DNA of 64,000 nt from Candidatus Poribacteria bacterium (GTDB taxonomy: Bacteria; Poribacteria; WGA-4E; WGA-3G): the NCBI GenBank assembly GCA_022827185.1, contig JAJDTM010000002.1:1560-65559 (forward strand), written 5' to 3'. Of this stretch, positions 1 to 57,755 are shown piece after piece (the first letter of the stretch is position 1; each line of letters begins with the position of its first letter). The notes beneath the pieces are model-generated. The model was given only the letters and a program-made list of their open reading frames with translations. It searched no databases and was not told the origin of the DNA. A program made the translations under genes and the position numbers.

Positions 1-3000
1 TTGTTTGGATCGACACCTCACACCATGAGTCGAGTTGAGGTGCCTGGACAAGCATCAGAAACATCTAAAGAGCCAACCGTAGTCAACCCAACGAGCCGGG
101 AGAAAGCACTCGAAGGGATGAGCATTTTATATGGCACCAACAAAAACGCGAATACACGTATCCCACCGCCCATGCTGAACCTGTTCCAGCGAGGCGAGGC
201 TCTCACAACGGTGCCATCACAGTTTATCGTAACGTACGACGGTTTCACAGACGAAGCAATCGAAGCGTTTCAATATGCCGTCGATATTTGGAACGCACTC
301 ATCCGGTCACCCGTACCGATCCGGATTGACGCATCTTTTATAGACTTCGGTGGATTTGAGGATGGCACTGTTATTTTAGGCGGTGCGCGCCCCGCAAGCT
401 GGAAATCTTCCAGATCCTTGGATTTGTGGTTCCCAGAAGCACTCGCAGATAACGGAGCCGGTAGAGACATCACAGCTGGTGAACCCGATATTATCACACG
501 ATTCAACAGTCACGAAGACGCAAATTGGTACTTTGGGACGGATGGGAACACGCCATCCGGAAAAACGGATTTCGTGAGTACTGTGCTGCACGAGATCGCT
601 CACGGTCTGGGGTTTAGCAGTTTTGCGACTGTAGATAAGAGTTCAATGTGGAGATTTTCCGCGTCCTCTGAGGGCGGCAAACTCAGAGCACGCCGACCCA
701 AATTAGCGCAGATTTACGATTTCTTTATAGAAAATGGGGCAGGGAAAACTATTATGTCTTTTCCGGACCCATCCTACGCGCTTGAAAATCAATTCACAAG
801 TAACGACCTCTTCTGGAATGGCAAAAAAGGGGCGCAAGCAAACGGCGGTATTCTCCCGCACCTCTATGCGCCGAGTGCGTGGGCTGAAGGTTCAAGTTAT
901 ACCCACTTAGATGAGATAACTTTTCCAGCTGGCACCGCGAATTCTCTAATGACCGCATATCTTGACAACCAAGAAGCGATTCACACCCCCGGGCCCATTG
1001 CGCTCGGTATGCTTGAAGATATGGGATGGACAATCAACAAACCACCCGTGTTCACCGACGGCTCCACTACCACCCGCACAGTCGTGAACGGAAGTGTCGG
1101 GAAACCAGTGGCAGCGACAGATGCCGACAATGACCCACTCACCTATCATCTCAGCGGCACAGATGCAGCAGCTTTTGACATTGATGGCACAACTGGACAA
1201 TTGAAGACCAAGGCAGCACATAATTACAATACCCAGACAGCCTATACGGTAACTGTCACCGTTTCCGATGGGAGCCTGCTCAATGAAATCGCTGTCACTA
1301 TCAATGTGATCGGCACAGAAACTGAGACACCCACAAATAGCACACCGAGGTTCGTGGATGGCAATCACACCCAGCGCACTGTGGCGGAAAATACCGCGAA
1401 AGGCGTAAACATCGGGAACCCGATTGCAGCGACAGATGCCGATAACGATGCCCTCACTTATACCCTCGGCGGGCCCGACGCAAAATCTTTTGAAATTGAT
1501 AACACCACTGGGCAACTGAAGACCCGTGCCAACCTCGACTATGAAACAAAGGATACCTACACCGTAACGGTTACTGTCTCCGATGGTGGCTTGACGGTTA
1601 CCATCACTGTTATTATTATTATTATTGATCTGGACGATCAAGAAAGTCCAGTGCTTACGTTAGTTTCACAACCGCTAACAGAAACAACGCTGAACGGAAG
1701 CGTTGTGACACTGCGTTTGAACAACCGAGTCTATGAAAACTGGCTCAGCGATCCTGTAACAGTCTCTGGTATTCCGGGTGTAACTGTTAAACCGTTTGAT
1801 ATAACCCGTTTGAACGATACAGAATTGTCAGTTCAACTGACATTCTACGGGACAGACCTCAACACGGATGCCACGCTCACCTTCACAGTGAAAGCGGATG
1901 CTATCGCAAACTATGATGGTCCCGCACTCACCGCGACAGCAGAGGTCACCGCGAATGCGGAATCGGTGACCGCATCAACGATAACACCCTTAACGGAAGC
2001 GACACTCAATGGAAGTGCAGTTACATTGACGTTAGACGGCGGTGTTTACGAATCTCAGTATACTGTCGGAAACAGTGTGACAGTATCGGGTATTCCCGGT
2101 GTCACCGTTGACGGATTTAACGTGGAACGCCTCAGCGGGACGCAGGTGAACGTTGGACTGATATTTGATGGTACAGACTTTGACAGAGATGCCACGCTCA
2201 CCTTCACAGTTGGAGCAGATGCCATCGTAGGCTACAACGGCACGGCACTCACCGCACAATTACCCGTCAGCGCGGTCGTAGAAAAGACCCCAATAATAAC
2301 CGCTTATTATCCATCACGAGCCTTGACTGAGGCAACCCTTGATGAAAGTATCGTTACACTCACACTGTCAAGCGGGATGTATACGCAATCCAGTGCCGAC
2401 ATCAGTCGTGCTGTGACAGTCTCCGGTATCGCAGGTGTTACGTTTCTCCAGTCCGATGTCGTGCGCGTCAGTGATACAAAAGTGACTGTTAAACTGACAT
2501 TTGACGGTACAGACTTTGACACGGATGCCACGCTCACCTTCACACTCAGCGCAGATGCCATCACGAACTATGACGGCCCCGCACTTATCACTACAGTACT
2601 TGTCTCCGCCGTGGTCGAAGAAAGGCCTACAATCACGGCTTCGGCGACGCAACCTTTGACGGAGGCAACCCTCAATGGCAGTATTATCCGTCTAACGCTC
2701 AACAACAGCACTTACGTCCGATCTAACTTCGATATTGATAATGCTGTGACTGTATCGGGTATTGCAGGCGTTACTGTTGGATTTTTTGGAGTGGAACGTG
2801 TGAGCGACACGGTCATCATCTTTGAACTTGAATTCAATGGTAACCTTGACACCAACACCACGCTCATTTTCACAGTGGGTGCGGATGCTATTGTTGAATA
2901 CGACGGTCCCGCACTCATCGCACAAATAATTGTTAACGGGGGGCAGGAATCGGTTGTCGCATCAACTGAGACCCCGTTGACAGAAACTACGCTGAACGGA

Positions 3001-5145
3001 AGTGTCGTTACACTGACACTCAACGGGGCAATTTATGAACGATCTACCTTTGATCTCAGGGATGCTGTTGAGGTCTCTGGTATTGACGGTGCCACTTTTC
3101 ACTGGTTTGATTTGGACCGCGTCAGTGATACGGAATTGACGGTTGAATTAACATTCAGAGGCAACATTGACACGGATGCTATCCTCACCTTTACAGTGGG
3201 TGCGGATGCTATTGCCGAATACGACGGTCCCGCACTCATCGCACAAATAACTGTCGCTGGCGGCAAGGAATCCGTGGTGGCATCAACGGAAGCACCTTTG
3301 ACAGAGGTTACGCTCGATGGCAGTGTCGTCACGCTTACGCTCAGCGGGCGTACTTACGAACGATCCAGTTTCAGAATCAGAGACGCTGTGTCGGTCTCCG
3401 GGATTGATGGCGTGACAATCCCGTGGCACGAACCCGACAGAAAAAACGACACACAGATCACCATCGAACTGGAATTCAACGGCGACTTTGACGCGGATGC
3501 GATGCTCACTTTTACGGTCAAGGCAGAGGCACTGTTGAGATATAACGGTCCTGCACTCACCGTACAAGTACCTGTTACCGGCGGGCAGGAATCCATCGCC
3601 GCATCAATAGAATCTCCGTTGACTGAGGCGACCCTGGATGGCAGCGTCGTCACGCTTACACTCAGTGGTAGAGAATATGTTCGGTCTTCTTTTACCATTG
3701 AGCGTGCTGTGACGCTATCCGGCATTGACGGCGTAACCGTAGATGATATAGATCGCAACAGTGCTACGGAGATCGCTGTCGAACTGGCATTTAACGGGGA
3801 CTTCGATGCCGATGCGATACTCACACTCAATGTTGGGGCAGATGCTATAGACGGCTATAAGGGCCCCGCATTTACCGTACAACTCCGTGTCACTGGCGGG
3901 CAAGAATCGGTGGTTGCATCAACAAAAGCACCCTTAACCGAGGCAACATTGGATGGCAGCGTCGTCACGCTTACACTCAGTGGTAGAGAATATGTTCGGT
4001 CTTCTTTTACCATTGAGCGTGCTGTGACGCTATCCGGCATTGACGGCGTGACCATAGACGATGTAGATCGCAACAGTGCTACGGAGATCGCTGTCGAACT
4101 GGCATTTAACGGGGACTTCGATGCCGATGCGATACTCACACTCAATGTTGGGGCAGATGCTATAGACGGCTATAAGGGCCCCGCATTCACCGCAGAAGTT
4201 TCTGTGAGCGGCGGGCAAGAATCGGTGATCGCATCAACGAAAGCACCCTTGACTGAAGCAACATTGGATGGCAGCATCGTCACGCTTACACTCAGCGGTC
4301 GTAAGTATGTGCGGTCTTCTTTTACCATTGAGCGTGCTGTGACGCTATCCGGGATTGACGGCGTAACCGTAGAGGATGTAGACCGCAACAGTGCTACGGA
4401 GATCGCTGTCGAACTGGCATTTAACGGGGACTTCGATGCCGATGCGACACTCACACTCAATGTTGGGGCAGATGCTATAGACGGCTATAAGGGCCCCGCA
4501 TTTACCGTACAACTCCGTGTCACTGGCGGGCAAGAATCGGTGGTTGCATCAACAAAAGTGCCCTTGACTGAAGCGACATTGGATGAGAGCGTTGTCACCC
4601 TCACACTCAACGGCAGGAAGTATGAACGCTGGAATTCTACAATCAGAAGGGCTGTGTCAATCTCTGGTATTACAGGTGTTACCGTCCGGAGTTTTGATAT
4701 AGACCGTGAGAGCGATACGGAAGTCACCGTCGAGTTGACCTTCAACGGCAATATGAACACTGATAGCACACTCACATTCACCGTAGGTGCCGGTGCAATT
4801 GCAGGATACAACGGTCCGGCACTCACGGCGCAAATAACTGTTACTGCTGATAGAGAGAACGCGCTTTTAGCAAACTTCCCGAATCCGTTTAATCCTGAAA
4901 CATGGATTCCATATCAACTCGCGAAATCCACAGAGGTCACCATCACTATCTATGCAGTGAACGGACAGGTGGTTCGGACATTGGCACTCGGGCATCAATC
5001 TGCGGGGATGTATCAGAGTCGTTCCCGTGCGGCATATTGGGATGGCAGAAATGCGTTCGGTGAACCTGTGGCAAGTGGGGTCTATTTCTATACGCTCACC
5101 GCAGGCGATTTCACCGCTACACGAAAAATGTTAATACGGAAATAG
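1..5145 (+). CDS. 5'-partial giant secreted protein: zincin-like metalloprotease domain, two cadherin-like domains, about ten tandem roughly 105-aa repeats and a T9SS-type C-terminal sorting domain
   Basis: ORF runs off the window start. The HEIAHGLGF zinc-binding motif is at about nt 590. Cadherin-like signature (ATDADNDxLTY...TVTVxVSDG) occurs twice between 1080 and 1600. A roughly 315-nt repeat period runs from about 1650 to 4850. The C-terminus NFPNPFNPETWIPYQL...VYFYTLTAGDFTATRKMLIRK matches the Por_Secre_tail/T9SS CTD pattern. Confidence 0.8.
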   Translation: MFGSTPHTMSRVEVPGQASETSKEPTVVNPTSREKALEGMSILYGTNKNANTRIPPPMLNLFQRGEALTTVPSQFIVTYDGFTDEAIEAFQYAVDIWNALIRSPVPIRIDASFIDFGGFEDGTVILGGARPASWKSSRSLDLWFPEALADNGAGRDITAGEPDIITRFNSHEDANWYFGTDGNTPSGKTDFVSTVLHEIAHGLGFSSFATVDKSSMWRFSASSEGGKLRARRPKLAQIYDFFIENGAGKTIMSFPDPSYALENQFTSNDLFWNGKKGAQANGGILPHLYAPSAWAEGSSYTHLDEITFPAGTANSLMTAYLDNQEAIHTPGPIALGMLEDMGWTINKPPVFTDGSTTTRTVVNGSVGKPVAATDADNDPLTYHLSGTDAAAFDIDGTTGQLKTKAAHNYNTQTAYTVTVTVSDGSLLNEIAVTINVIGTETETPTNSTPRFVDGNHTQRTVAENTAKGVNIGNPIAATDADNDALTYTLGGPDAKSFEIDNTTGQLKTRANLDYETKDTYTVTVTVSDGGLTVTITVIIIIIDLDDQESPVLTLVSQPLTETTLNGSVVTLRLNNRVYENWLSDPVTVSGIPGVTVKPFDITRLNDTELSVQLTFYGTDLNTDATLTFTVKADAIANYDGPALTATAEVTANAESVTASTITPLTEATLNGSAVTLTLDGGVYESQYTVGNSVTVSGIPGVTVDGFNVERLSGTQVNVGLIFDGTDFDRDATLTFTVGADAIVGYNGTALTAQLPVSAVVEKTPIITAYYPSRALTEATLDESIVTLTLSSGMYTQSSADISRAVTVSGIAGVTFLQSDVVRVSDTKVTVKLTFDGTDFDTDATLTFTLSADAITNYDGPALITTVLVSAVVEERPTITASATQPLTEATLNGSIIRLTLNNSTYVRSNFDIDNAVTVSGIAGVTVGFFGVERVSDTVIIFELEFNGNLDTNTTLIFTVGADAIVEYDGPALIAQIIVNGGQESVVASTETPLTETTLNGSVVTLTLNGAIYERSTFDLRDAVEVSGIDGATFHWFDLDRVSDTELTVELTFRGNIDTDAILTFTVGADAIAEYDGPALIAQITVAGGKESVVASTEAPLTEVTLDGSVVTLTLSGRTYERSSFRIRDAVSVSGIDGVTIPWHEPDRKNDTQITIELEFNGDFDADAMLTFTVKAEALLRYNGPALTVQVPVTGGQESIAASIESPLTEATLDGSVVTLTLSGREYVRSSFTIERAVTLSGIDGVTVDDIDRNSATEIAVELAFNGDFDADAILTLNVGADAIDGYKGPAFTVQLRVTGGQESVVASTKAPLTEATLDGSVVTLTLSGREYVRSSFTIERAVTLSGIDGVTIDDVDRNSATEIAVELAFNGDFDADAILTLNVGADAIDGYKGPAFTAEVSVSGGQESVIASTKAPLTEATLDGSIVTLTLSGRKYVRSSFTIERAVTLSGIDGVTVEDVDRNSATEIAVELAFNGDFDADATLTLNVGADAIDGYKGPAFTVQLRVTGGQESVVASTKVPLTEATLDESVVTLTLNGRKYERWNSTIRRAVSISGITGVTVRSFDIDRESDTEVTVELTFNGNMNTDSTLTFTVGAGAIAGYNGPALTAQITVTADRENALLANFPNPFNPETWIPYQLAKSTEVTITIYAVNGQVVRTLALGHQSAGMYQSRSRAAYWDGRNAFGEPVASGVYFYTLTAGDFTATRKMLIRK
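1650..4850 (+). repeat. Coding tandem repeats of 315 bp (about 105 aa) unit; the three units at 3636-3950, 3951-4265 and 4266-4580 are nearly identical at DNA level
   Basis: The string ggatggcagcgtcgtcacgcttacactcag recurs at 3636, 3951 and 4266, exactly 315 nt apart. Minus-strand shadow ORFs also recur with 315-nt spacing. Earlier units are more diverged. Confidence 0.75.
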
Positions 5146-6060: not shown

Positions 6061-8769
6061 TTACATCGAAATCCCTAATAATCCGCGCGTCAACTGAAAA
6101 TCCGTATTCCCTTTGTCGTGGAGCTTCGGCGTATACTGCCGCGATGCCACCTCTACAATTAACGCTAACAACTTCTCAACATTAGCAGTCTCTAAATCCA
6201 GATCCGCGCCGTAGGTGGATTGCGTTGCGGCATCTGTGGAGACCTGAATGAGTGGCACCATTACATGCGATTGTAAGGGGGCACCGACGATGTGAGCGAG
6301 TGCCAGATCCACACCTGCTGCGCCGAGTCCTGTCAACGTTTCTGTCGGTTGGTCTGTGGGAGTTTCCATGATGTGGAAACCGGCTTTTTCGACGCGCTGC
6401 CCATACGCTAAGGATGGTGGACGGCACGACGGAGCGTGCCTACTACCTTGCACGAATGTCGCGTTTTCAGGCACGATAATTGTTCCACCCGCAGTGGTGA
6501 CTCTGTAGATTAATTGTGTTAGGGATTGAGAGACTTCCTCTGTTATCTCACCTGTTGATGTCACGGCTACACGGAGGTGTTCTAATCCAGCATTGACAAC
6601 CGGAACAGATGGTTTATCCGAAAGCGTTTCCGAAAACCAGTCTTGCACCTTCTCAATAACAGCATCAATCCCGCCATCCAACTGCACGCTCGCCCAACCG
6701 TAACTTTCCGGCGATATTCCCAACTTCTGAATCTCATGTCGGACGTGGTCGTTATGGGTTTTCTCACAACCGTGTTCAAGAAGCAGCCCAAGTGCGACCG
6801 TCGGATGCGTGAGGTGTCCAAGCATCGTGCGGGTATAAATCTCCTCAGAACGTCCACTGGAGACACCGCAGCCCTCTGTATGTGGCAGTGCTACAAAACG
6901 GGATATACCTTGCTTCTCGCCGATCTTCTGTTCATTGCAGCGGTGCGCAATCATCTCCGCAATCTGCCCAGAACAGAGGCTTGTCGGTAAGATGAGTCCG
7001 ACCTGATCCGTGCGGTAACCCGCTTCCGTTTGGAGCGCACGGAAAACCTCCAGACCTGGTAGGTGCGGTTTCCTAACCGCACCTACTCCCAAGGTCTCAA
7101 TCGGAATGGGTTCGCCGGATTTCAACTCGGATGCTGTTAACAACGGGTCTAAATCCACGGGACCCGTCTGCTTCCAATCGCGCCACAGCGAGACTTGCGA
7201 ATGCCCCGCTTTCTCACCGACTGAACGTTCACCGGACGCGACATCCACCGTCAGATCCAACATTGACTCACCGAGTTCTTCCATCGGTGTGCCGTCAAGA
7301 TACGCACCGGCGTTCACGTCCATATCCTTGGTGAGCATCTCATAACGTCCTGTCGTCGTGACAATCTTGATCGTCGGCACGAACGGGAAATTCGTGATAG
7401 AGCCGTTGCCTGTCACAAAGAAGATCATGTTGGAACCGGATGCCACCTGCCCTGCGATACTCTCTAAATCGTTGCCTGGACTGTCCATGAAATAGTAACC
7501 AGGGTTCTCCATGCGTTCACTGTAATTGATGACATAATCCAGACAAACATCCGGATGCCGTTTCATTGCCGCACCGATTGATTTAATGGCGATATTATAG
7601 AGACCGCGGAAGTTGTTACCGCCAGAAGGGTTTCCTTCTGCGGAGTGTCCATGCCACGAGACGCGTTCCTTAAACCGTTCAATCGTATTGAGGAACGTGC
7701 GCGCTGTCGGCAGGTCCCGGACGTTCTGAAGCACGTAAGCCTCTGAACCGATCAGTTCATCGGTTTCCGCGAGGTTGGCGCAACCACCGTAACGGATGAC
7801 CTCTTTTGCTACATAGGCAGCGAGCGGATTGCCTGATACTCCAGAGAACGCGTCGGAGCCGCCACACTGCAAGGCGATTTTTAGATACGTCAGAGATTCT
7901 TCAGTGCGTGGCACACTATTCACACTTTCCAACCATCCGTTAATAATTTCTACGCCGTTGGCTAAATCGGTGTCAAACCCCTCTTGTAGCCGATAGAAAC
8001 GGTGGACGACATCATCTAAAGCGTAGCCTTCGCGTAACATATATGCCTTGAGCATATCGTTCGTAACCGCTTCGGTGCCGTAGTCAACGAGCAGTATCGC
8101 ACCGATATTTGGATGGACAGTAAAACCGGCGAGCGTTCGGAGCAACATATCAATGTTATTGGGTGTCTGGCTTTCACCGCCCTCTGTATGCGTTACGGCG
8201 ACAACTCCGTCTATATTCGGAAATGTATCGGGGTTACAAACCTCTCCTACAGAACACATCTCTGCAAGTCTCCTTGCGAAACCGGAGGTACGTGAAGTCG
8301 TTCCCATGACGACGATATAGTTCCGCGTACCAACGCCACGGTTACCCGGACGTTGGTAGCCAAGGAAGGAACGCGGGGTCGTGTGCCGTGGCGCCTGCTC
8401 TCCAGGGTGGAATTCTGTTTCGTTCAGTACATAGGGCACCATCTTGTCGCTGAAGTTAGGTGTTTCTGGCAATTCAAAGGGCAGATGCCTAATGGACAAC
8501 GAATCAATCATCTTCTGATTGCACACATAGTCGCCGGGGGCAATGGAACGTATTGCATAACCGAAGGGTAATCCCCAGGACAACAAGGGTGCTGCTTCTG
8601 AAATCGACGCAATGGCGAAGCGATGTCCTTCTAAAATGGTATGCGATAGTTGAAACTGCGCTCCATTATAGCGTATGTGAGTGCCGCCTTCTAATGTCTG
8701 CGTGGCAATAGCGACGTTATCATTCGGTGAAGGAAGCCGCGCGACAGAGGTAAGATCAAAATCCATCAA
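6061..8769 (-). CDS. UxaA/GarD-family altronate/galactarate dehydratase with an extra partial duplicated UxaA-like region (902 aa)
   Basis: N-terminal SAF domain (NDNVAIATQTLEGG). The first roughly 520 aa align along E. coli UxaA from memory (GVGTRNYIVV, HTEGG, CGGSD..GNP, PTIKI). Residues about 560-800 repeat the central UxaA motifs (ILPTSLCS, ALPHTEGCG). A REP-like palindrome is embedded in-frame near the 3' end. Confidence 0.6.
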   Translation of the reverse strand: MMDFDLTSVARLPSPNDNVAIATQTLEGGTHIRYNGAQFQLSHTILEGHRFAIASISEAAPLLSWGLPFGYAIRSIAPGDYVCNQKMIDSLSIRHLPFELPETPNFSDKMVPYVLNETEFHPGEQAPRHTTPRSFLGYQRPGNRGVGTRNYIVVMGTTSRTSGFARRLAEMCSVGEVCNPDTFPNIDGVVAVTHTEGGESQTPNNIDMLLRTLAGFTVHPNIGAILLVDYGTEAVTNDMLKAYMLREGYALDDVVHRFYRLQEGFDTDLANGVEIINGWLESVNSVPRTEESLTYLKIALQCGGSDAFSGVSGNPLAAYVAKEVIRYGGCANLAETDELIGSEAYVLQNVRDLPTARTFLNTIERFKERVSWHGHSAEGNPSGGNNFRGLYNIAIKSIGAAMKRHPDVCLDYVINYSERMENPGYYFMDSPGNDLESIAGQVASGSNMIFFVTGNGSITNFPFVPTIKIVTTTGRYEMLTKDMDVNAGAYLDGTPMEELGESMLDLTVDVASGERSVGEKAGHSQVSLWRDWKQTGPVDLDPLLTASELKSGEPIPIETLGVGAVRKPHLPGLEVFRALQTEAGYRTDQVGLILPTSLCSGQIAEMIAHRCNEQKIGEKQGISRFVALPHTEGCGVSSGRSEEIYTRTMLGHLTHPTVALGLLLEHGCEKTHNDHVRHEIQKLGISPESYGWASVQLDGGIDAVIEKVQDWFSETLSDKPSVPVVNAGLEHLRVAVTSTGEITEEVSQSLTQLIYRVTTAGGTIIVPENATFVQGSRHAPSCRPPSLAYGQRVEKAGFHIMETPTDQPTETLTGLGAAGVDLALAHIVGAPLQSHVMVPLIQVSTDAATQSTYGADLDLETANVEKLLALIVEVASRQYTPKLHDKGNTDFQLTRGLLGISM
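6423..6447 (-). repeat. REP-like palindromic element copy (acggcacgacggagcgtgcctactac) lying in-frame inside the UxaA-like ORF
   Basis: Same hairpin family (GGCACG-n6-CGTGCC followed by CTACTAC) as the copies at 14844-14908, 15580-15604 and 38004-38062. It translates as GSRHAPSCRPPS within the ORF. Confidence 0.6.
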
Positions 8770-9386: not shown

Positions 9387-9826
9387 CGGAACGCGGGTGT
9401 CCCGTGCTGAATTTAATGTCTGCTAACAGTTATGGTAAATGTTTATTATTGCGTATAATGTTCTGTTAGATAATCATACACGCGAACCTGTTTTGAGGTC
9501 AAGGGTGTTTCCGATATATCAGGGGTATTCAGTTTTACATATTCACTATAATGGATATGTCCTCCTCTGTAGGAGCGAGCTGTGCTCGCGATCTTGCGAA
9601 AAAACGTTAACTTATGTCAACCAAAACCGGAACCGGAAACTAAATAGCCCTGCGATATATGGTATGCTTAGTAATATCCGCGAAAATTTGAGGGAAGATT
9701 GTGTATAACTCTGATTTTTCTGGAAATTATGCCCTCTTTTCGTCTATAATATTGTATCGTTAAGAATTAGAATTTCCATTTGATGGGTAAATTTTAGGAA
9801 TTATTGTTCTTGGAGGTAATAGACAC

Positions 9827-10663: not shown

Positions 10664-10716
10664 ACGTGTCCGGTCATAGTGATTTGTCACATCTAAACTG
10701 AGAGGCGGTTCGTAGT

Positions 10717-10748
10717 GGCGCAATTCATTGCGCCTTAATTTTTATCCC
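10717..10748 (+). terminator. Hairpin GGCGCAATTCATTGCGCC followed by a T-rich run; member of a small palindrome family
   Basis: Perfect 7-bp stem with 4-nt loop, then ttaatttttat. An inverted copy of the same palindrome lies at 36175-36191. Confidence 0.45.
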
Positions 10749-14843: not shown

Positions 14844-14908
14844 CCTTAATGGTAGTAGGCACGCTCCGTCGTGCCGTTCACTAAAGGGGTTTACGGCACG
14901 CGGAGCGT
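14844..14908. repeat. REP doublet in inverted orientation (BIME-like) immediately 3' of the RAYT gene
   Basis: gtagtaggcacgctccgtcgtgccgt at 14844-14869 and acggcacgcggagcgtgcctactac at 14884-14908, separated by a 14-nt spacer. Each forms a GGCACG/CGTGCC hairpin. Confidence 0.75.
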
Positions 14909-14918
14909 GCCTACTACT

Positions 14919-15563
14919 TTAGATCTGATACAAAAAATACTCACCCTTCTGAAGGTGGATTGGATTTTTCTGGATGTATTGCTGGATCGCACAGAACTGC
15001 TCAGGTGAGCGTACGAGGTGATCGAAGCTCTCTTCCTGCCAAAACCGTCCGGTTTTGCCAAGCACTTTGTTGATTTTACCGGCACTGAACCTTTTCCATG
15101 AACGGCATTGTTTCAGGAGTTCTGTGGCACCTAACAAACAGACTAACAAATGAACGTGATTAGGCATAACCACGAAGTCGCCTATGTGATAACGATCACC
15201 ATTAAAGTATAATAAACTGTCCGCTACGATCTTTGATAGTTCGGGGTTTCGTAGGACGCATGCCCCGAGACCTTTATCAAGGTTTTCCATATACTGCTGT
15301 GAGAAGGTTTCATGAAATTGTTTACGGAATTTTTCTGGAAGTGTCGCCAGTTTATCTTTCCAACCCGATATTGAGGTCGTAATTCCGTGTCGTGCAAGCC
15401 ATGCTGATCGTTCGGCGTACCATCGTCGAGCTACGTGCGTAGGGAGTGAGTCTTCAGTGCGAAACGTGATAAAGTAGGTTGCTGGCAGTTGAAACCAATG
15501 TGGCAGATTTGAACCGGCTATTATAATTTGGAAATCGCTGTTCGGATCAAAGAGGTTGAACAT
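14919..15563 (-). CDS. REP-associated tyrosine transposase (RAYT; IS200/IS605 Y1 HUH transposase family)
   Basis: HUH motif region VVMPNHVHLLV, conserved FWQEESFDH and overall Y1_Tnp layout. Flanked on both sides by REP hairpins. Confidence 0.8.
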   Translation of the reverse strand: MFNLFDPNSDFQIIIAGSNLPHWFQLPATYFITFRTEDSLPTHVARRWYAERSAWLARHGITTSISGWKDKLATLPEKFRKQFHETFSQQYMENLDKGLGACVLRNPELSKIVADSLLYFNGDRYHIGDFVVMPNHVHLLVCLLGATELLKQCRSWKRFSAGKINKVLGKTGRFWQEESFDHLVRSPEQFCAIQQYIQKNPIHLQKGEYFLYQI

Positions 15564-15579: not shown

Positions 15580-15604
15580 ACGGCATACGGAGTATGCCTA
15601 CTAC
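15580..15604. repeat. Degenerate REP copy upstream of the RAYT start
   Basis: acggcatacggagtatgcctactac uses a GGCATA/TATGCC stem variant with the same CTACTAC tail. Confidence 0.6.
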
Positions 15605-36161: not shown

Positions 36162-36360
36162 ATACCGAACGCGAGGCGCAATGAATTGCGCTACTACGAG
36201 CCAGGATACTTTACTGTTTGGAGGGACGCGATTCACCGCAGCGATGGGGGTTGTCTGGTTTCTATGCACAGCCTAACAGGCTATGCTACAAACGCTATCT
36301 ACTATAATCCTTCGTAATACCATGGCACGCTAAAAATAATATACACAATGAGGTGACTTC

Positions 36361-38003: not shown

Positions 38004-38062
38004 GTAGTAGGCACGCTCCGCCGTGCCGTAACAGGGTAGTAGGCACGCTCCGCCGTGCCGTA
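38004..38062 (+). repeat. Two direct tandem REP copies (gtagtaggcacgctccgccgtgccgt x2)
   Basis: Copies at 38004-38029 and 38037-38062, in the gap between convergent genes. Confidence 0.75.
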
Positions 38063-41643: not shown

Positions 41644-41681
41644 AGGCCCGGTAGGTTCGGTTTCCTAACCGAACCGGGCCT
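41644..41681. repeat. Imperfect hairpin aggcccggtaggttcggtttcctaaccgaaccgggcct, the intact version of the split element at 10750-10866
   Basis: Two arms ggcccggt..gttcggtt / aaccgaaccgggcc. Located just after the 40806..41582 stop. Confidence 0.55.
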
Positions 41682-50965: not shown

Positions 50966-53080
50966 ATGCAACTAACTAAGAAACAAAACATTTTTATTTA
51001 CTTACTCATCTTTTGTGCGACACTATTCTTCGTATTTCCACTGATAACAAGTGCACAAACTGTTAACATTCCTGACGCGAATCTTCGCGAAGCAATCAAT
51101 GAGGCACTCGGTAAAGCATCAAATGCCCAGGTTACATTGAAGGAAATAGTGACGTTAACCCGCCTTACTGCGAATAACAGAGGTATCAGCGATTTAACAG
51201 GACTTGAAGTTGCGACAGGATTGGAGAGCGTAGAACTCCAGCATAATCAAATATCCGACTTATCCCCGCTCGCGGGGTTGATGAAACTGCGTGTTATACG
51301 GATGGGCAATAACCTTATATTTGATTTATCCCCGGTCGCAGGTTTAATCAACTTGGCAAGATTAGATATCTGGGAGAATTTGATTTCCGATTTGTCCCCG
51401 GTCGCAGGTTTAACCAACTTACTATCAATAAGTTTCGGGAGTAATTCGGTATTTGACTTATCACCCTTGGCGGGGTTAAGGAAGCTTGAGAGGATAAATA
51501 TGAGCCAAAACCCGCCAGCAGACCTCTCGCCCCTTTCAAAAATAATTGGTTTGACAGGTTTTCATTCTTGGGGCACCCCTATATTAGACCTCGCGCCTTT
51601 GGCGGAATTACCAAAACTCAGCGTCATAGATATCTGCGGGGGCGAGATATCGGACCTCTCCGCTTTAGCGAACGCGACAGGTTTGAAGGAACTGTATTTT
51701 GCTGGCAATCAGATCACGGACGTATCGCCGTTGGTGGGCTTAACAAATTTGACGAGACTGAATTTTGCAGAAAATGAAATATCGGACGTGTCACCACTTG
51801 CTGGATTAACCAACTTGACATGGATACGGATTAACCACAATCCAATATCCGATCTATCGCCTTTAGAAGGGTTAGGTATACCTATTGTTCACCATAATAC
51901 CCCGGCATTTCCACCGGGCGGTCCGAAAATCGAAGGACCATGGTTATGGGTACTTGTACCGGGGGAGCGTATTGGTGGTGGAGATTTGCTGGCAGAAGCG
52001 ACGGGTGGCACAGCGACAGAGGAGAAGGTTGCTACTGTTGGTGCTGCAGAGGGAAAGTCTGTTGGAGACAATGTTTGGGTAGCCGATAACATTACCGCGG
52101 TGGGACGCAATAACATCGGTGAAATGCTGAAACGCCAAGGCGTGGGAAACGACGGAGTCGTCTACGGTTCCACCACCTTGGAGTCACCACGAGAACAGGA
52201 AACAAAAATGTTCGTCGGCGCGCATGATGGTGTTGAAGTCTGGCTCAACGGGGCACTCATTCACCAGAAATCTGGTGGACATTGGGCGGAGGGTTACCAC
52301 ACCTTTTTTCCCGTTACGCTCAACGAAGGAACAAATGTGTTGTTAGTTGCTCTTGACAACCACCACGTTGATCAGTGGCGGGCATTTTTTGGATTTGACG
52401 TTGACACAGAATATACGGTAAATTCTCCGATTTCCCGAGCTCCATCTGAAATACCTGCTTATGATGTCAATGAGGATGGGCAAATCAGTATTCTGGATCT
52501 GATTCTGGTAGGTCAAGACTTGGGAAAAGCAAAGCCCACCAACGCGCGAACAGATGTGAATGGCGATGGAACTGTTAGTATCTCGGACCTCGTCCTTGTG
52601 GCACAACATCTCGGCGAAATAACAGGAATTCCTGCCTCGCCTTCCCCCTACACCTTACGCAGCATGGGGTTAGACGCGGCAACAGTCCACACGTGGATAG
52701 CACTTGCCGAGATAGAAAATGATGGCTCGCTCGTCTTCAAGCAAGCGATAGCGAATCTTCAACGGCTTTTAGCGTTGTTGATGCCCGAAAGGACAGCATT
52801 GCTTGTGAACTATCCGAATCCGTTTAACCCAGAGACATGGATACCCTACCAACTTGCTGAACCTGCCAAGGTCACTATACACATTTATGCGATGAGCGGT
52901 GCTTTGGTCCGGAAGTTAGATTTAGGACATCAGGCTGCTGGTATCTATAGTGAAAAGAACCGTGCAGCGTATTGGGATGGTCGCAACCAACTTGGAGAAC
53001 CTGTAGCGAGTGGTGTGTATTTCTACACGTTCACTACTGGCGACTTTACGGCGACGCGAAAAATGGTGATAAGGAAGTAG
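50966..53080 (+). CDS. Secreted protein: LRR, a roughly 180-aa unknown domain (domain Y), a dockerin and a T9SS-type C-terminal sorting domain
   Basis: Signal peptide. About 12 LRRs. Domain Y (GPWLWVLVPG...KSVGDNVW...SPREQETKMF). Dockerin DVNEDGQISILDL...[41 protein letters not shown]...VYFYTFTTGDFTATRKMVIRK. Confidence 0.75.
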   Translation: MQLTKKQNIFIYLLIFCATLFFVFPLITSAQTVNIPDANLREAINEALGKASNAQVTLKEIVTLTRLTANNRGISDLTGLEVATGLESVELQHNQISDLSPLAGLMKLRVIRMGNNLIFDLSPVAGLINLARLDIWENLISDLSPVAGLTNLLSISFGSNSVFDLSPLAGLRKLERINMSQNPPADLSPLSKIIGLTGFHSWGTPILDLAPLAELPKLSVIDICGGEISDLSALANATGLKELYFAGNQITDVSPLVGLTNLTRLNFAENEISDVSPLAGLTNLTWIRINHNPISDLSPLEGLGIPIVHHNTPAFPPGGPKIEGPWLWVLVPGERIGGGDLLAEATGGTATEEKVATVGAAEGKSVGDNVWVADNITAVGRNNIGEMLKRQGVGNDGVVYGSTTLESPREQETKMFVGAHDGVEVWLNGALIHQKSGGHWAEGYHTFFPVTLNEGTNVLLVALDNHHVDQWRAFFGFDVDTEYTVNSPISRAPSEIPAYDVNEDGQISILDLILVGQDLGKAKPTNARTDVNGDGTVSISDLVLVAQHLGEITGIPASPSPYTLRSMGLDAATVHTWIALAEIENDGSLVFKQAIANLQRLLALLMPERTALLVNYPNPFNPETWIPYQLAEPAKVTIHIYAMSGALVRKLDLGHQAAGIYSEKNRAAYWDGRNQLGEPVASGVYFYTFTTGDFTATRKMVIRK

Positions 53081-53117
53081 GTTGTCGCACTTTCAACCGA
53101 TAGTTAGGAGATTAACC

Positions 53118-56100
53118 ATGAGAATTAGTAAATACCTTTATCTGACAGTATTAATATTTATCGTATTAGGATTTGGAACCGCATCTGCGCAGCAGGATCT
53201 CGCGCAAGAGGCATACACTATCCTTCAAAAGAATTGTTCGCTATGTCATGGAGAACACGGCTCCTTTACCGAGGATTTGGTGCTTGAATACACATCACTC
53301 ATCGGGAATGGGGTTATTGTCCCTGGAAATCCTAATGCTTCGGAGTTCTATAAACGATTAATTGAGAATACACCCGAAAAACCGCGAATGCCGTGGGGAC
53401 AGCCTGCGTTGTCAGCGGATGCGCTTGAGACGATTCGTCAGTGGATTGCAGCGGGTGCACCGAATTGGGAGGTGCAATATGATGTCAACTTCATTACGAT
53501 GGATGCGATGCTTTCGGTGATTGAAGATCACGTCGCGTCGCTTTCGGCATTTGATCGTCCGTCCGCTCGCTACTTCACGCTGACGCATCTCTATAACGCT
53601 GGTGGAAGTCCTGAGGCACTTGATGCCTATCGGCGTGCACTCTCGAAGTTGGTGAATAGTCTCTCCTGGGGGTTTGAAGTGATCAAGCCAGAACCGATTG
53701 ACGAACAAGAGATGATCTTTTATATTGATTTGCGCCACTATGAGTGGGATAGAAACGAAGCGTGGACGCAGATTGAACGGGAATATCCCTACAGCATTGA
53801 ATTTGATTCGGAGACACAAGCGGGTCTGCACGAAAAACTGACGAATTTACGTACAGAAATGGACTGCGAAGTGCCGTTTGTCTATGTGGATTGGTTCCTT
53901 GCTAATGCGTCGTTACCACCGCTGTACCACGATATTCTGGACCTGCCAGAAACGGATCAGGAATTAGAGGAGCAACTGGGAGTCAATGTGACGCGAAATA
54001 TCAACAATGCTCCCGGGGTTCACGTCTGGCGTGCGGGTTTCCTCAAGTCGGGTGTGTCAGGGTACAACCGTGTTGTGGAACGGCACACCTCCGACTATGG
54101 TGCGTATTGGAAAAGCTACGACTTTGCGGGGGATTCGGACGTTCAGAATATTTTTATACATCCGCTGACTTTTAGACACGACGGTGGGGAGGTCGTGTTC
54201 CATCTGCCGAACGGTTTGCAAGGGTATTATATCTCTGATGCGTCTGGGAATCGGATAAATGAGGCACCAACGACGATCGTATCCAACCCAGCGGCAAGCA
54301 ATCCTGCCGTGCGCAATGGTCTCTCTTGTATCGGTTGCCACACAGAAGGCATGAAAACGTTTGAAGATGAGGTGCGTGCGGAGATTATGCTGCGGTTCCC
54401 TGAGGGACCGGTGAAGGATCAGGGATTGCGTCTGTATGTGGAACAATCAAAGATGGATGCGCTTGTGGCGAGGGACACAGCTCGTTACAGGGGAGCACTT
54501 GAAAAGACGGGTGGTGTGTTTGGTGGTACGGTTGAACCGGTACATCGGTTCTATGAGGAGTTTCAACGTCCTGTTGAGGCTGCACACGCTGCGGCTGCTG
54601 TCGGTTTAGAGACAGAGATGTTCCGTCAAGAGATTCGAGATAAACAGCGTTTACGGGACTTAGGTTTGGCGGGGCTATTGGAGGATAGGGGTGTGAGTCG
54701 GGATACATGGACCTCCAACTTTCCCGAAGTGATTTCGGCGCTGCATTCTCCCGACGATACAACAACACAGCCGGTCGATCCAGAAACTGACCTACGTCCT
54801 GGTGATTTAGTCTCTATTCCTGATCCGAACCTTCGTGCTGTGATAGAAAGGTTGCTCGACAAAGCCCCAGGTGCTTTGATTACGGCGGCGGATATGGCAA
54901 GGTTGACGCGGATTGTTGCCGATGATGCTGGGATTAGTAATTTGACGGGACTTGAGGCGGCAACGCAGTTGGAACGCATAGAATTTCGTCGGAATTCGAT
55001 ATCCGATTTATCTCCACTGAGAGGCTTAATCCGACTCAATAACATCAAGCTCCGGGGGAATCGGATAACCGATGTATCACCGCTTGCTGACTTAGTTCGT
55101 GTGGATTGGTTAGGACTTGAGGATAACGAGATAACAGATTTATCTCCGCTGAAGGGATTAACCAGATTAAACGGGATAGGGATTTCAGGCAACCCAATAT
55201 CCGATGTATCACCGCTTGCAAACTTGACCAGTTTAGAAGGCATCAACGCTTGGCGCACACCTATCTCGGATTTCTCATCCTTGGCAAAATTAACGAGATT
55301 CAGGTGGATAGGATTTGGTGATGATAAGTCGATATCAGCACTTCCATCACTGAAGGGATTGAAAAGTTTGAGACGGTTGGAAATTAACAACTGTAGCATC
55401 TCGGATCTCTCCGGATTGGCGGAATTGACACAGTTGGAATGGTTAGGATTGAATAATAACCAGATATCGGATATATCTCCATTGCGAAATTTAAGGGGTT
55501 TAGAACATCTGAATCTTAATGCTAACATTATCGAAGATGTATCGCCGCTTGCGAAGTTAACAAAGTTAAAACTTCTACATCTTGTGAACAACATTATCTC
55601 GGATGTATCGCCGCTTGCAGGATTAACTAACTTGGAACGGTTAGACCTCCGCAACAATGCGATATCTGACTTTTCACCTTTGGAAGGATTATTGGAGGAG
55701 ACATTTGTCAGAATAGAAGGTAACACGGGTGTTCTCCGGCGAGGAGCTCCAAAGATACAAGGGCCATGGTTGTGGGTGCTCGTGCCTGTGCCCGGGTCTG
55801 ATGCCTTCCGTAACATAGATTTGCTTGCACGAGCAAGTAATGGAGATATAACCGAGCGGGAGATCGCTACAAACGGTGCGACAGAAGGGAAGTCTGTCGG
55901 TGATAACGTCTGGTTTTCCGAGAAAATATCTACGGATAGGAACAACATCAGAACCATGCTGGGTGCCCTCGGTATGTTAGAAGAGGGCAGTCGCTCGAAT
56001 CTCGTCTACGGTTCGCTCACCCTTGATTCACCACGAGAACAACAGACAAAGATGTTTGCTGGGAGCGATGATCTGCATAAAGTCTGGTTCAATGGACAGT

Positions 56101-57755
56101 TGGTTAGCGAAGCTGTCCACGGAGGGACAAGTGGTGATTACCAGGAATCTTTCCGTGTTACGTTGAAGCAAGGAAAAAATGTGTTATTAGTTGCAATATA
56201 TGATTATGGGGGTGGATGGGGAGGACATTTTGGGTTTGCGCCTGATGCTGAATATACGGTCTTATCCCCTGACACCAGATTCTCCTTTTCCACAGCGGCG
56301 ACGCGAATTAAAGTTGGCGATAGGTTCACTGTTCAGTTCAAAACAAAAAACATTTCCGACTTAGCGGGATGGCGATCTGATATTACATTTGATCCCGCAG
56401 TGCTAAAAGTCAATAACGTCCGCGAGGGTAGTTTCCTGAAACAAGGTGGTGGACGCACCCACTTCTTGAAAGGCACGATTGATAATACGATGGGTAGAAT
56501 CGCCGATGTCGGTTCTGCACGGATCTCTGAAGGTGGAGTTAGCGGTGAAGGTGCCCTGTTGTCAATTACATTCACGGCAAAGGTGAATGGTGAGAGCCGA
56601 TTGTCACTACGAAAATTTCAAGCTGGTTCCAGTACGGGTGATGCAATTTCTGATCGACCCCCTGATATGATTATTACTGTCGAGGATCCGTCGTCCTTAG
56701 ATGTAAGTGATGGCCCATTTTCCCTTTCTACGGATGTAACACCTGTTCGCCTTGGTAATACCTTTAACCTTCTTCTCAAAGCGGAAGATGTTACGGATTT
56801 AGCGGGATGGCAGACTGATATTGCGTTTGACCCCGATGTGCTTGAAACCGTTGAGGTGAACGAAGGCGATTTTCTGAAGGCGGAAGGCGGGGATACCTTC
56901 TTTTTTCAAGGCGCGATTGATAACACGGCAGGTAAAATTACAGGTCTCAGCGCAGCGAAGTTGAAGGGCGGTGGTAACGGCGCAGGTATGCTACTATTGG
57001 TTACATTCAAGGCGAAGGCTGTCGGGGAAACACGGGTGACACTTAGCAATTTCTTTGCTGGCTCCAGCAGCGGCGAAACTATCTCTTCAGAAGTTCCCGA
57101 AATTAGGATCACTATTGAGGATCGCGCGTTTTCTGCTTCGGATGTCAATCAGGACGGTCGAGTGAACGTTCAGGATCTAATCGTGGTTGCACAACATTTA
57201 GGTGCTGATGCGTCTGTCAACCGCCGAGCGGATGTCAATGGCGATGGAACTATTAACGTTTTGGACATCATCGTTATCGCACAAAATTTAGGTGAATCAA
57301 CAGCGGCTGCGCCTTCCAATGTTGCTGCTATAGACAGTTTAGAATTATATCCAGCAATGGTTCAGGCATGGATAGCGGAGGCAGAGGCTAAGAATGACGA
57401 TTCGATTGCCTTCCGACAGGGTATCGAAAACCTTCAACGACTTTTAGCGTCGCTGCTTCCTGAAAAGACAGTGTTGCTGCCGAACTATCCGAACCCGTTC
57501 AATCCCGAAACATGGATACCCTATCATCTTGCTGAAGCTGCGGATGTGACAGTGCATATCTATGCTACCGATGGGGTCTCGGTTCGGACGTTGGCGTTAG
57601 GGCATCAGGCTGCTGGCACCTATGAGCGTCGTAGCCGTGCGGTGTATTGGGACGGCAAAAACGAGGTCGGTGAGCCTGTCGCGAGTGGTGTCTATTTTTA
57701 TACCCTAACGGCAGGTGATTTCACTGCTACGCGGAAACTGTTGATACGGAAATAG
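53118..57755 (+). CDS. Giant secreted scaffold-like protein: PSCyt1-like CxxCH domain, a second CxxCH, LRR, domain Y, two cohesin-like modules, a dockerin and a T9SS-type CTD
   Basis: ATG 53118 with aggag RBS and signal peptide. CSLCH at about 53235 followed by ...PRMPWGQPALSADALETIRQWIAAGAP, the PSCyt1 pattern. CIGCH at about 54325. LRRs 54820-55700. Domain Y 55740-56280. Cohesin-like beta-sandwich modules at about 56290-56690 and 56700-57120 (DLAGW..DI.FDP.VL). Dockerin at 57130-57300. CTD at 57480-57755. The track ORF starts at TTG 53082, one base after the previous stop. Confidence 0.75.
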   Translation: MRISKYLYLTVLIFIVLGFGTASAQQDLAQEAYTILQKNCSLCHGEHGSFTEDLVLEYTSLIGNGVIVPGNPNASEFYKRLIENTPEKPRMPWGQPALSADALETIRQWIAAGAPNWEVQYDVNFITMDAMLSVIEDHVASLSAFDRPSARYFTLTHLYNAGGSPEALDAYRRALSKLVNSLSWGFEVIKPEPIDEQEMIFYIDLRHYEWDRNEAWTQIEREYPYSIEFDSETQAGLHEKLTNLRTEMDCEVPFVYVDWFLANASLPPLYHDILDLPETDQELEEQLGVNVTRNINNAPGVHVWRAGFLKSGVSGYNRVVERHTSDYGAYWKSYDFAGDSDVQNIFIHPLTFRHDGGEVVFHLPNGLQGYYISDASGNRINEAPTTIVSNPAASNPAVRNGLSCIGCHTEGMKTFEDEVRAEIMLRFPEGPVKDQGLRLYVEQSKMDALVARDTARYRGALEKTGGVFGGTVEPVHRFYEEFQRPVEAAHAAAAVGLETEMFRQEIRDKQRLRDLGLAGLLEDRGVSRDTWTSNFPEVISALHSPDDTTTQPVDPETDLRPGDLVSIPDPNLRAVIERLLDKAPGALITAADMARLTRIVADDAGISNLTGLEAATQLERIEFRRNSISDLSPLRGLIRLNNIKLRGNRITDVSPLADLVRVDWLGLEDNEITDLSPLKGLTRLNGIGISGNPISDVSPLANLTSLEGINAWRTPISDFSSLAKLTRFRWIGFGDDKSISALPSLKGLKSLRRLEINNCSISDLSGLAELTQLEWLGLNNNQISDISPLRNLRGLEHLNLNANIIEDVSPLAKLTKLKLLHLVNNIISDVSPLAGLTNLERLDLRNNAISDFSPLEGLLEETFVRIEGNTGVLRRGAPKIQGPWLWVLVPVPGSDAFRNIDLLARASNGDITEREIATNGATEGKSVGDNVWFSEKISTDRNNIRTMLGALGMLEEGSRSNLVYGSLTLDSPREQQTKMFAGSDDLHKVWFNGQLVSEAVHGGTSGDYQESFRVTLKQGKNVLLVAIYDYGGGWGGHFGFAPDAEYTVLSPDTRFSFSTAATRIKVGDRFTVQFKTKNISDLAGWRSDITFDPAVLKVNNVREGSFLKQGGGRTHFLKGTIDNTMGRIADVGSARISEGGVSGEGALLSITFTAKVNGESRLSLRKFQAGSSTGDAISDRPPDMIITVEDPSSLDVSDGPFSLSTDVTPVRLGNTFNLLLKAEDVTDLAGWQTDIAFDPDVLETVEVNEGDFLKAEGGDTFFFQGAIDNTAGKITGLSAAKLKGGGNGAGMLLLVTFKAKAVGETRVTLSNFFAGSSSGETISSEVPEIRITIEDRAFSASDVNQDGRVNVQDLIVVAQHLGADASVNRRADVNGDGTINVLDIIVIAQNLGESTAAAPSNVAAIDSLELYPAMVQAWIAEAEAKNDDSIAFRQGIENLQRLLASLLPEKTVLLPNYPNPFNPETWIPYHLAEAADVTVHIYATDGVSVRTLALGHQAAGTYERRSRAVYWDGKNEVGEPVASGVYFYTLTAGDFTATRKLLIRK

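Follow-up and report, generated by a model that had tools for sequence, protein, structure and literature searches.

The DNA described here is a 64,000-nt stretch from Candidatus Poribacteria bacterium, a sponge symbiont (assembly GCA_022827185.1, contig JAJDTM010000002.1, positions 1,560 to 65,559 of the forward strand); we refer to this whole stretch as the window and count coordinates from its first nucleotide. It contains a 902-amino acid (aa) open reading frame (orf) of the UxaA/GarD dehydratase family that carries three short GTAG-tagged hairpins, all in frame, belonging to families of repetitive extragenic palindromic (REP) elements. Very probably these are tolerated in-frame REP insertions in loops of a functional gene. 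An earlier note on this DNA had reported one REP hairpin in frame within the 902-aa orf, and this is confirmed, the REP being a GTAG hairpin with dispersed copies; two further in-frame GTAG hairpins (7059-7086 and 8230-8250) had been missed. The gene, its two halves and its three inserts are as follows.

6061-8769, minus strand: long-form UxaA/GarD-family dehydratase-like orf, 902 aa, TTG start.
7174-8721, minus strand: first half (SAF, GD_AH_second and GD_AH_C domains by Pfam), with QCGGSDAFSG kept.
6175-6996, minus strand: second half (GD_AH_second-like segment, aa 592-712, then a GD_AH_C fragment, aa 787-865).
7059-7086, minus strand: site 1, family-F2 REP GTAGGTGCGGTT-AGGA-AACCGCACCTAC, which lies in the inter-half linker and is perfectly palindromic over 12 bp.
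6423-6446, minus strand: site 2, family-F1 REP GTAGTAGGCACGCTCCGTCGTGCC; repeat similarity spans 6416-6447.
8230-8250, minus strand: site 3, decayed family-F4 REP GTAGGAGAGGTTTGTAACCCC, with one stem mismatch relative to the consensus GTAGGAGGGGTTTGTAACCCC.

Orthologs of the gene were collected by scanning one genome per GTDB species, which gave 79 loci. At site 2 the in-frame translation of the REP is GSRHAPSCRPPS; the codons CAA GGT AGT AGG CAC GCT CCG TCG TGC CGT CCA CCA TCC read QGSRHAPSCRPPS (aa 774-786, between ...FV and LAYGQ...), and the segment peptide, (Q)GSRHAPSCRP(PS), lies 116 codons upstream of the stop. The hairpin has a 6-bp stem and a 6-nt loop, with an RNA minimum free energy (MFE) of -13.5 kcal/mol over 46 nt (z = -2.3). 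The alignment of orthologs has a hypervariable stretch exactly between ...VPANATF and TLAYGQRVEK, which is site 2, and a variety of states are observed there. Empty sites read NATFITSELSPTLAYGQ at the protein level and AAC GCG ACG TTT ATC ACA TCG GAG TTA TCC CCG ACA TTA GCG (NATFITSELSPTLA) in the DNA of loci L007, L006, L070 and L034, and more distant clades (65-78% identity) have REP-free variants of the same empty segment. L071, L013 and L015 contain the REP of the window in the same orientation, with SELSPT kept. At L058 (8287-8358) CAAGGTAGTAG is present and the hairpin is gone, which looks like a deletion of the palindrome right behind the GTAG tag, by way of an excision footprint or slippage. 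About 20 species have an inverted F1, TACGGCACACGGCGTGTGCCTACTAC (YGTRRVPTT), and in six loci (L023, L061, L020, L031, L075 and L019) the loop of this inverted form contains another, nested hairpin, GGGGTTACAAACCCC. L005 and L045 have arrays of 3 and 5 units, with up to 93 aa between the anchors, and about 15 species have a class-B insert, consisting of CAGCNGT heptamers and a hairpin of its own.

The comparison with orthologs that the earlier note had proposed thus yielded both empty-site orthologs and REP-free basal clades, and the tolerated in-frame insertion that it listed among three readings is upheld by these empty sites. The same note held that orthologs with the 12-aa site-2 segment and no REP-like nucleotides would speak against an inserted REP. 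Such orthologs were looked for; all of those with the segment share the REP nucleotides too.

Site 1 is translated as VGAVRKPHLP (aa 562-571), and its hairpin, with a stem of 11-12 bp and a loop of 4 nt, has an RNA MFE of -23.5 kcal/mol (z = -4.0). Other orthologs have nothing at this position, or GTAGGAGCGATCTCCGAATCGCG (VGAISESR; duplicated in L006), or an inverted F1 unit in 1, 2, 3 or 5 tandem copies, the array of five being that of L022 (TAQRSVPTTLPP x5). Site 3 was found by a scan for GTAG hairpins; its segment is translated as VGEVCNP (aa 174-180), and the consensus element has a 6-bp stem. About 25 species have GTAGGAGGGGTTTGTAACCCC (VGGVCNP) at this site, 7 species have GTAGGGGCGAGGTCACCTCGCCCCTAC (RRGEVTSPLQ) instead, and others have an empty site with the short form SASAEAYP. 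The peptides predicted at the edges of the inserts are NATFVQGSR and HAPSCRPPSLAYGQR for site 2, and GAVR and KPHLPGLEVFR for site 1.

In a 78-sequence alignment, length varies greatly at sites 1 and 2 and nowhere else. At least 5 repeat families are represented at the three sites of the orthologs; they occur in either orientation, as nested elements, or as tandem arrays of 2-5 copies. All three sites are free of inserts in the basal Poribacteria clades (65-78% identity). Minimum numbers of insert types were counted using only those states that point mutation cannot interconvert; there are at least three at site 2 (F1 forward, F1 inverted and class-B), at least three at site 1, and at least two at site 3; several amplifications and deletions, together with one nested insertion, come on top of these minima. 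We propose that the three sites have been repeatedly hit or remodelled within crown-clade Poribacteria, with at least seven distinct insert types drawn, as it appears, from five GTAG-REP families and one heptamer-repeat insert of uncertain origin; the states produced by this turnover would include the hairpin-deletion remnant and the partial deletions. Fitch parsimony on neighbour-joining gene trees gave 17-27 state changes per site, values that were rejected as event counts because some taxa had been misassigned by the regular-expression classifier, the tree does not resolve the crown clade, and recombination is possible.

The recipient gene was examined by profile searches, alignment and structure prediction. 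Pfam places GD_AH_second at aa 137-284 (151.5 bits) and GD_AH_C at aa 295-532 (274 bits), preceded by a SAF domain at aa 17-82 that, with 20.3 bits, narrowly misses the cut-off of 21 and matches 3k3s by both sequence and fold. A second copy of GD_AH_second (aa 592-712, E 2.6e-15) is followed by a GD_AH_C fragment (aa 787-865) that, at 24.4 bits, is just below the cut-off of 26.8. The alignment of both halves to UxaA/GarD profiles, which the earlier note had suggested, is thereby supplied and defines the domain boundaries; together with an alignment of the halves with each other (24-25% identity) it bears out the description of a complete UxaA-like portion followed by a second set of the central motifs. 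The second half is an incomplete and diverged copy of the core of UxaA/GarD. Calling it a partial internal duplication, as had been done, was right but understated the case, as the two halves look complementary.

This complementarity is seen in the distribution of two conserved features. A cysteine triad, C599/C634/C668 (PTSLCSG, HTEGCG and EHGCEK), is invariant in a diverse alignment, is present in the second half only, and aligns with cysteine positions of the GarD second domain. The first half (aa 158-232 compared) has none of the three GarD second-domain cysteines and retains an invariant QCGGSDAFSG block, which is confined to it; the second half is without the QCGGSDAFSG part of the C-terminal domain. 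Because the cysteines and this block are split between them, the halves look complementary and not redundant, as would be expected after a sub-functionalised duplication, and the long form would be the product of an old tandem duplication and fusion. The first half resembles E. coli GarD (6u7l) in having the SAF, second and C-terminal domains, whereas the protein described here is about twice as long and GarD has the cysteine triad and the QCGGSD block in one chain.

E. coli GarD matches the first half by phmmer (E 1.3e-36), and the first half superposes on 6u7l with a TMt of 0.80-0.84 (Foldseek on the AlphaFold2 model). That model, calculated with a diverse alignment as input, is one compact body with a mean predicted local distance difference test score (pLDDT) of 92.3 and a predicted template modelling score (pTM) of 0.93; an earlier run on a shallow alignment of sequences with at least 85% identity gave a mean pLDDT of 40 and was unusable. 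The score against the GarD equivalog profile TIGR03248 is 180.9 bits, far below the cut-off of 730.85, so that the protein is a member of the family and not an ortholog of the characterised GarD. Compared with crown-clade orthologs, each half of the gene in the window has a ratio of nonsynonymous to synonymous substitution rates (dN/dS) of 0.05-0.11, with dS of 0.6-1.4, which points to strong purifying selection on the gene. The best explanation for the orf at 6061-8769 would be a functional long-form UxaA/GarD-family enzyme.

This long form is maintained across relatives. Intact orthologs, full or partial, are present at 78 of the 79 loci (that at L068 is truncated), and the frame is open wherever a locus covers the region; many of the loci come from closed chromosomes of 5-6.7 Mb, in which intact genes have REPs at identical codon positions. 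The best 120 database matches are all (120/120) 888-932 aa long, with 85-98% identity and 100% coverage, and are Candidatus Poribacteria where named. Two independent assemblies, P0001 (98% identity) and P0002 (92%), have local sequence and a junction identical to those of the window. Using the C-terminal half alone as the query, an exhaustive search recovered 223 clusters (E < 1e-30); many have 860-1000 aa and match over approximately residues 550-900 at 30-44% identity. The fusion is therefore old and widespread, and UxaA proteins of this long form, made of two complementary halves, represent a genuine architecture. A full-length long-form homolog with 50% identity was also noted at L078, in a metagenome-assembled genome labelled Gammaproteobacteria; the other representatives from outside Poribacteria are far more distant, a difference that hints at transfer or mis-binning.

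When compared with 49 distant long-form homologs, all three sites are in the least conserved, length-variable segments of the protein. The site-1 segment is 18-89 aa in these homologs, with a conservation of 0.22 as against 0.51 for the whole protein, and the segments at sites 2 and 3 range from 26-45 aa and 19-37 aa. All three are mostly coil in the AlphaFold2 model, and the four 10-residue blocks with the lowest pLDDT are 561-570 (55; site 1), 771-780 (64; site 2), 631-640 (75) and 171-180 (76; site 3); site 2 also overlaps block 781-790 (84). We propose that the REPs landed in frame and stop-free in the loops under least constraint, where they would yield 7-13 extra or replaced residues. 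One of these loops follows helix 159-174, one is the linker joining the halves, and one precedes the last alpha/beta unit. Insertions that broke the frame or disturbed the fold would have been purged by selection, and loop insertions of multiple-of-three length would have survived.

Each of the REP families found in the gene is also dispersed. F1 has a 32-nt match with 2 mismatches at 14851-14882, and more copies at 14895-14917, 15582-15604, 38004-38027 and 38036-38059, with no copies in 100 shuffles of the sequence. The window has 8 other GTAG-hairpin sites, and all 8 are intergenic and abut gene ends. All of the in-gene elements and the intergenic copies begin with GTAG (GTAGTAG in F1), and every family has intergenic copies among the 79 loci. 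The principal related elements of the window, and a candidate gene for a REP-associated tyrosine transposase (RAYT) 8 kb from the dehydratase gene, are the following; REPIN denotes a REP doublet forming a hairpin.

14851-14918, unstranded: inverted F1 pair, REPIN-like, immediately 3' of the RAYT-like gene; RNA MFE -55.2 kcal/mol, z = -10.6.
14919-15563, minus strand: RAYT-like gene, 214 aa, with HUH motif MPNHVHLLV and Tyr motif QQYIQKNP.
15582-15604, minus strand: single F1-type REP GTAGTAGGCATACTCCGTATGCC, immediately 5' of the RAYT-like gene.
38004-38059, plus strand: two tandem F1 REPs between convergent genes.
41651-41675, plus strand: relative of the site-1 REP, GTAGGTTCGGTTTCCTAACCGAACC, intergenic; it is identical in the loop and, apart from a compensated pair, in the stem.

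The RAYT-like protein matches the NCBIfam profile NF047646 (REP_Tyr_transpos) with an E-value of 7.9e-15 over profile positions 44-133 of 146, relative to which its N-terminus is longer by about 120 aa. Its alignment with E. coli TnpArep (4er8) is weak (E 0.4), with MPNHVHLLV aligned to LPEHMHCIW of TnpArep and QQYIQKNPI to VDYIYINPV. With F1 REPs on both sides, the gene is to all appearances in the classical arrangement of a RAYT with its own REPs. The dispersed REP families have most likely been spread by RAYT-type tyrosine transposases, and the copies in the dehydratase gene may have been mobilised by the product of 14919-15563.

Other GTAG hairpins were recorded in passing. Intergenic families are located just past gene ends at 10712-10734, 36176-36197 and 9569-9589, comprising GTAGTGGCGCAATTCATTGCGCC (two copies, in opposite orientation) and GTAGGAGCGAGCTGTGCTCGC. 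At L069 (5197-5859) at least 7 alternating GTAG REPs (GTAGGGCGAGGGCCTGTCCCTCGCC and GTAGCGCGGGGGCCTGTCCCCCGCG) just upstream of the ortholog give rise to a spurious open frame of 220 aa. In three basal-clade genomes GTAGGAGCGATCTCCAGGTCGC is found on the opposite strand inside an orf of 0.8-1.5 thousand aa (L065:13104, L066:12925 and L067:13980), possibly an orthologous in-gene REP of another protein.

Several other explanations for the in-gene hairpins have to be weighed. The earlier note had considered that two adjacent genes might be read through a REP-bearing gap without a stop, that is, that the orf is an artificial or recent fusion of a UxaA gene with a downstream gene. Such a fusion would be in keeping with the usual intergenic location of REPs and with site 1, which does fall in the inter-half linker, but the REP that the note had described is not at the junction; it is 230 residues past it, within the second half. 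Moreover, the fused form of about 900 aa is found in the REP-free basal Poribacteria as a continuous orf of about 890 aa, long-form homologs are present elsewhere at 30-60% identity, and the AlphaFold2 model is one compact fold (pTM 0.93), so that this explanation is extremely improbable. A misassembly or collapsed repeat seeded by the REP, also raised previously, is conceivable in that chimeric joins in short-read assemblies can start at short repeats. The protein flanks of each REP are, however, collinear with all of the orthologs, P0001 and P0002 have the identical junction and are identical locally, and closed long-read chromosomes of about 6 Mb have REPs at the same codons; an assembly error is accordingly scarcely credible. 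Finally, the palindromes could be native to the gene or born by chance, with the gene as their source and not their recipient. Site 3 would lend itself to this view, since its length is altered by 4-6 residues only and the copy in the window is imperfect, but each family has intergenic copies (in the window at 14851, 38004 and 41651), F1 flanks the RAYT-like gene, the segments are missing from basal clades, and the exact F1 24-mer is present in at least 120 unrelated metagenome contigs. We give a native origin almost no weight, and tolerated insertion is the reading that we favour.

A number of observations nonetheless weigh against tolerated insertion. Intergenic relatives of the class-B insert were sought, and only loose heptamer matches and no hairpin match were found. 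The site-3 copy in the window is decayed and folds no better than shuffles. The RAYT-like orf scores below curated cut-offs, with 55 bits against 80 for NF047646 and 22.8 against 23 for the Pfam family Y1_Tnp. That the REP segments are translated is suggested by conservation of the frame. The density of REPs in the dehydratase gene is high and speaks for insertion: in the 79 loci and the window, matches to the patterns of the five families number 62 per 213 kb of dehydratase gene, 30 per 114 kb of intergenic DNA, and at most 16 per 783 kb of other orfs (mostly spurious small orfs over REP arrays). This estimate of enrichment carries a bias, however, the gene having been selected for its REP and the orthologs being related by descent. 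Lastly, simple neutral tolerance fails to explain why, between species, the stems of the in-gene REPs have an identity of about 0.9 at every codon position, compared with 0.55 at fourfold degenerate sites.

The first test of stem identity picked REPs by a regular expression, with a bias to conserved copies, and it was repeated with species chosen by length state only. F4 at site 3 (25 species) has a pairwise identity of at least 0.9 at most core positions, third codon positions included, and the inverted F1, A(-), at site 2 (14 species) has a third-position identity of 0.92; third positions of the codons that flank the REP cores are at 0.5-0.7. The loops vary and the stems are conserved. Stem identity so far above that of fourfold degenerate sites cannot result from one old insertion that has since drifted neutrally. 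It could be accounted for by repeated re-insertion at one and the same codon, conversion by other REP copies, inter-lineage recombination, or selection on the hairpin, and the mosaic of insert states on the gene tree fits each of these four. Co-variation of in-gene and intergenic REP variants within genomes was sought, with too few intergenic F1 copies in the 12-kb flanks for a comparison.

It is unlikely, yet worth keeping in view, that the REP hairpins are maintained at the nucleotide level, either by selection on DNA or RNA structure (an inter-half translational pause, or a RAYT or gyrase site) or by gene conversion or targeted re-insertion, for which the three sites would serve as fixed landing pads. 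If true, the dehydratase gene would be a natural system with REP/RAYT biology acting inside a reading frame and not between genes. A related rival to tolerated insertion, on which we place rather little credence, is that the in-gene hairpins are kept for a function of the DNA or RNA (RAYT or gyrase binding, mRNA stability or processing, or translational pausing at the linker) or are homogenised by gene conversion. The REP cores are indeed far more conserved than neutral sites of the dehydratase gene, where dS is 0.6-1.4, and one REP is exactly in the linker between the halves. Many species, however, have empty sites in a gene showing no damage; decayed copies are present at site 3 of the window and in L026, L035 and L054, with a remnant in L058; and recent recurrent insertion or inter-lineage recombination could also raise identity. 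The replacement of families and orientations by one another argues further against a sequence-specific role.

How often REPs enter genes was estimated from a less biased sample, namely 149 sites with exact F1 24-mers in at least 120 metagenome contigs (L080-L199). Approximately 134 of the 149 copies are outside any long open frame, and most of the 15 candidates within orfs are in spurious frames in GC-rich DNA. Two are in real genes: L150:3319-3342 has an in-frame F1 in a UbiE/COQ5 methyltransferase (...SSRHAPSCR...), and L157:922-945 has one in a heparinase II/III-like protein (...YGTTERAYY...), which also contains VGGVSNPD, resembling a translated F4. With about 2 of 149 copies, sampled at random, in real genes, in-frame REPs are a low-frequency general phenomenon in these genomes, and the dehydratase gene is a strong accumulator of REPs. 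The contigs with the exact F1 24-mer have GC contents of 0.44-0.68 (0.478 in the window), and from this wide range the F1 sequence seems to be common to quite different organisms.

In-frame intragenic REPs have been described before. The GTAG/CGTC REP super-families are hairpins of 20-40 bp that for the most part lie between genes, next to gene 3' ends (Di Nocera, De Gregorio, Rocco 2013, BMC Genomics 14:522; PMC3733652). A minority are in frame in known proteins of several species, with some genes hit twice, and intragenic clusters encode 43-82 aa, for which placement in linkers or loops has been proposed (PMC3733652). The elements described here are like these in their GTAG tag, their hairpin and their in-frame minority. 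They differ in the Poribacteria host, in a recipient that encodes a sugar-acid dehydratase and is not a DNA-repair gene, in having three sites per gene, where about 75 orthologs are empty at these codons or carry another family, an inverted or nested element, or an amplified array, and in stem conservation well above the synonymous background.

A second precedent, and the classical one for palindromes translated within genes, is provided by the Rickettsia palindromic elements (RPEs), described as selfish palindromes translated in frame in functional Rickettsia genes at fold-compatible positions (Ogata et al. 2000 via PMC3733652, PMC10969869). RPE-1 is given as about 100-150 bp, and RPEs of about 150 bp are described in PMC10969869; the intragenic RPE-4 and RPE-6 have been classed as short CGTC-tagged REPs (PMC3733652). 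The likeness is in the consequence, an in-frame insertion, and does not extend to family membership: the units here are of 21-28 bp and GTAG-tagged, with a RAYT-like gene nearby, whereas several RPE families are much longer, and RPEs are without a GTAG tag or a reported link to RAYTs and reside in a reduced intracellular genome.

REPIN-RAYT systems are extragenic in their classical description (Nunvar et al. 2010, PMC2817692; Bertels & Rainey 2011, PMC3116915). Shared with them are the 5' GTAG, the inverted pairs, the tandem copies, and a single RAYT-like gene with an HUH motif that is flanked by its own REPs; here, by contrast, copies persist within an essential-looking reading frame, and the RAYT-like orf falls short of curated cut-offs and is extended by about 120 aa at its N-terminus. 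A search of the literature on REPs in Poribacteria found nothing specific. The kind of phenomenon is therefore already known, through in-frame intragenic REPs and RPEs; new here are the host phylum, the three sites in one conserved enzyme, the series across about 75 species, and the excess conservation of the stems.

The gene offers a clean case of REPs absorbed into a protein as loop and linker residues, their "extragenic" name notwithstanding. The series of about 75 orthologs is useful for asking where proteins tolerate insertions, how REPs choose or keep their sites, and whether forces besides neutral drift keep the hairpins up. For annotation, it indicates that length-variable "low-complexity" stretches of Poribacteria proteins can be translated REPs and not assembly errors or fusions.

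One other feature of the window was noted outside of the dehydratase gene and the REPs. A giant protein of surface type is encoded at positions 1-5145; it exceeds 1714 aa, runs off the start of the window and contains tandem repeats of about 105 aa (315/321-nt period). It has a C-terminal sorting-like domain of about 58 aa, the DNA of which (4971-5145) is repeated at the ends of two leucine-rich repeat/dockerin proteins (50966-53080 and 53082-57755), at 52906-53080 and 57581-57755.

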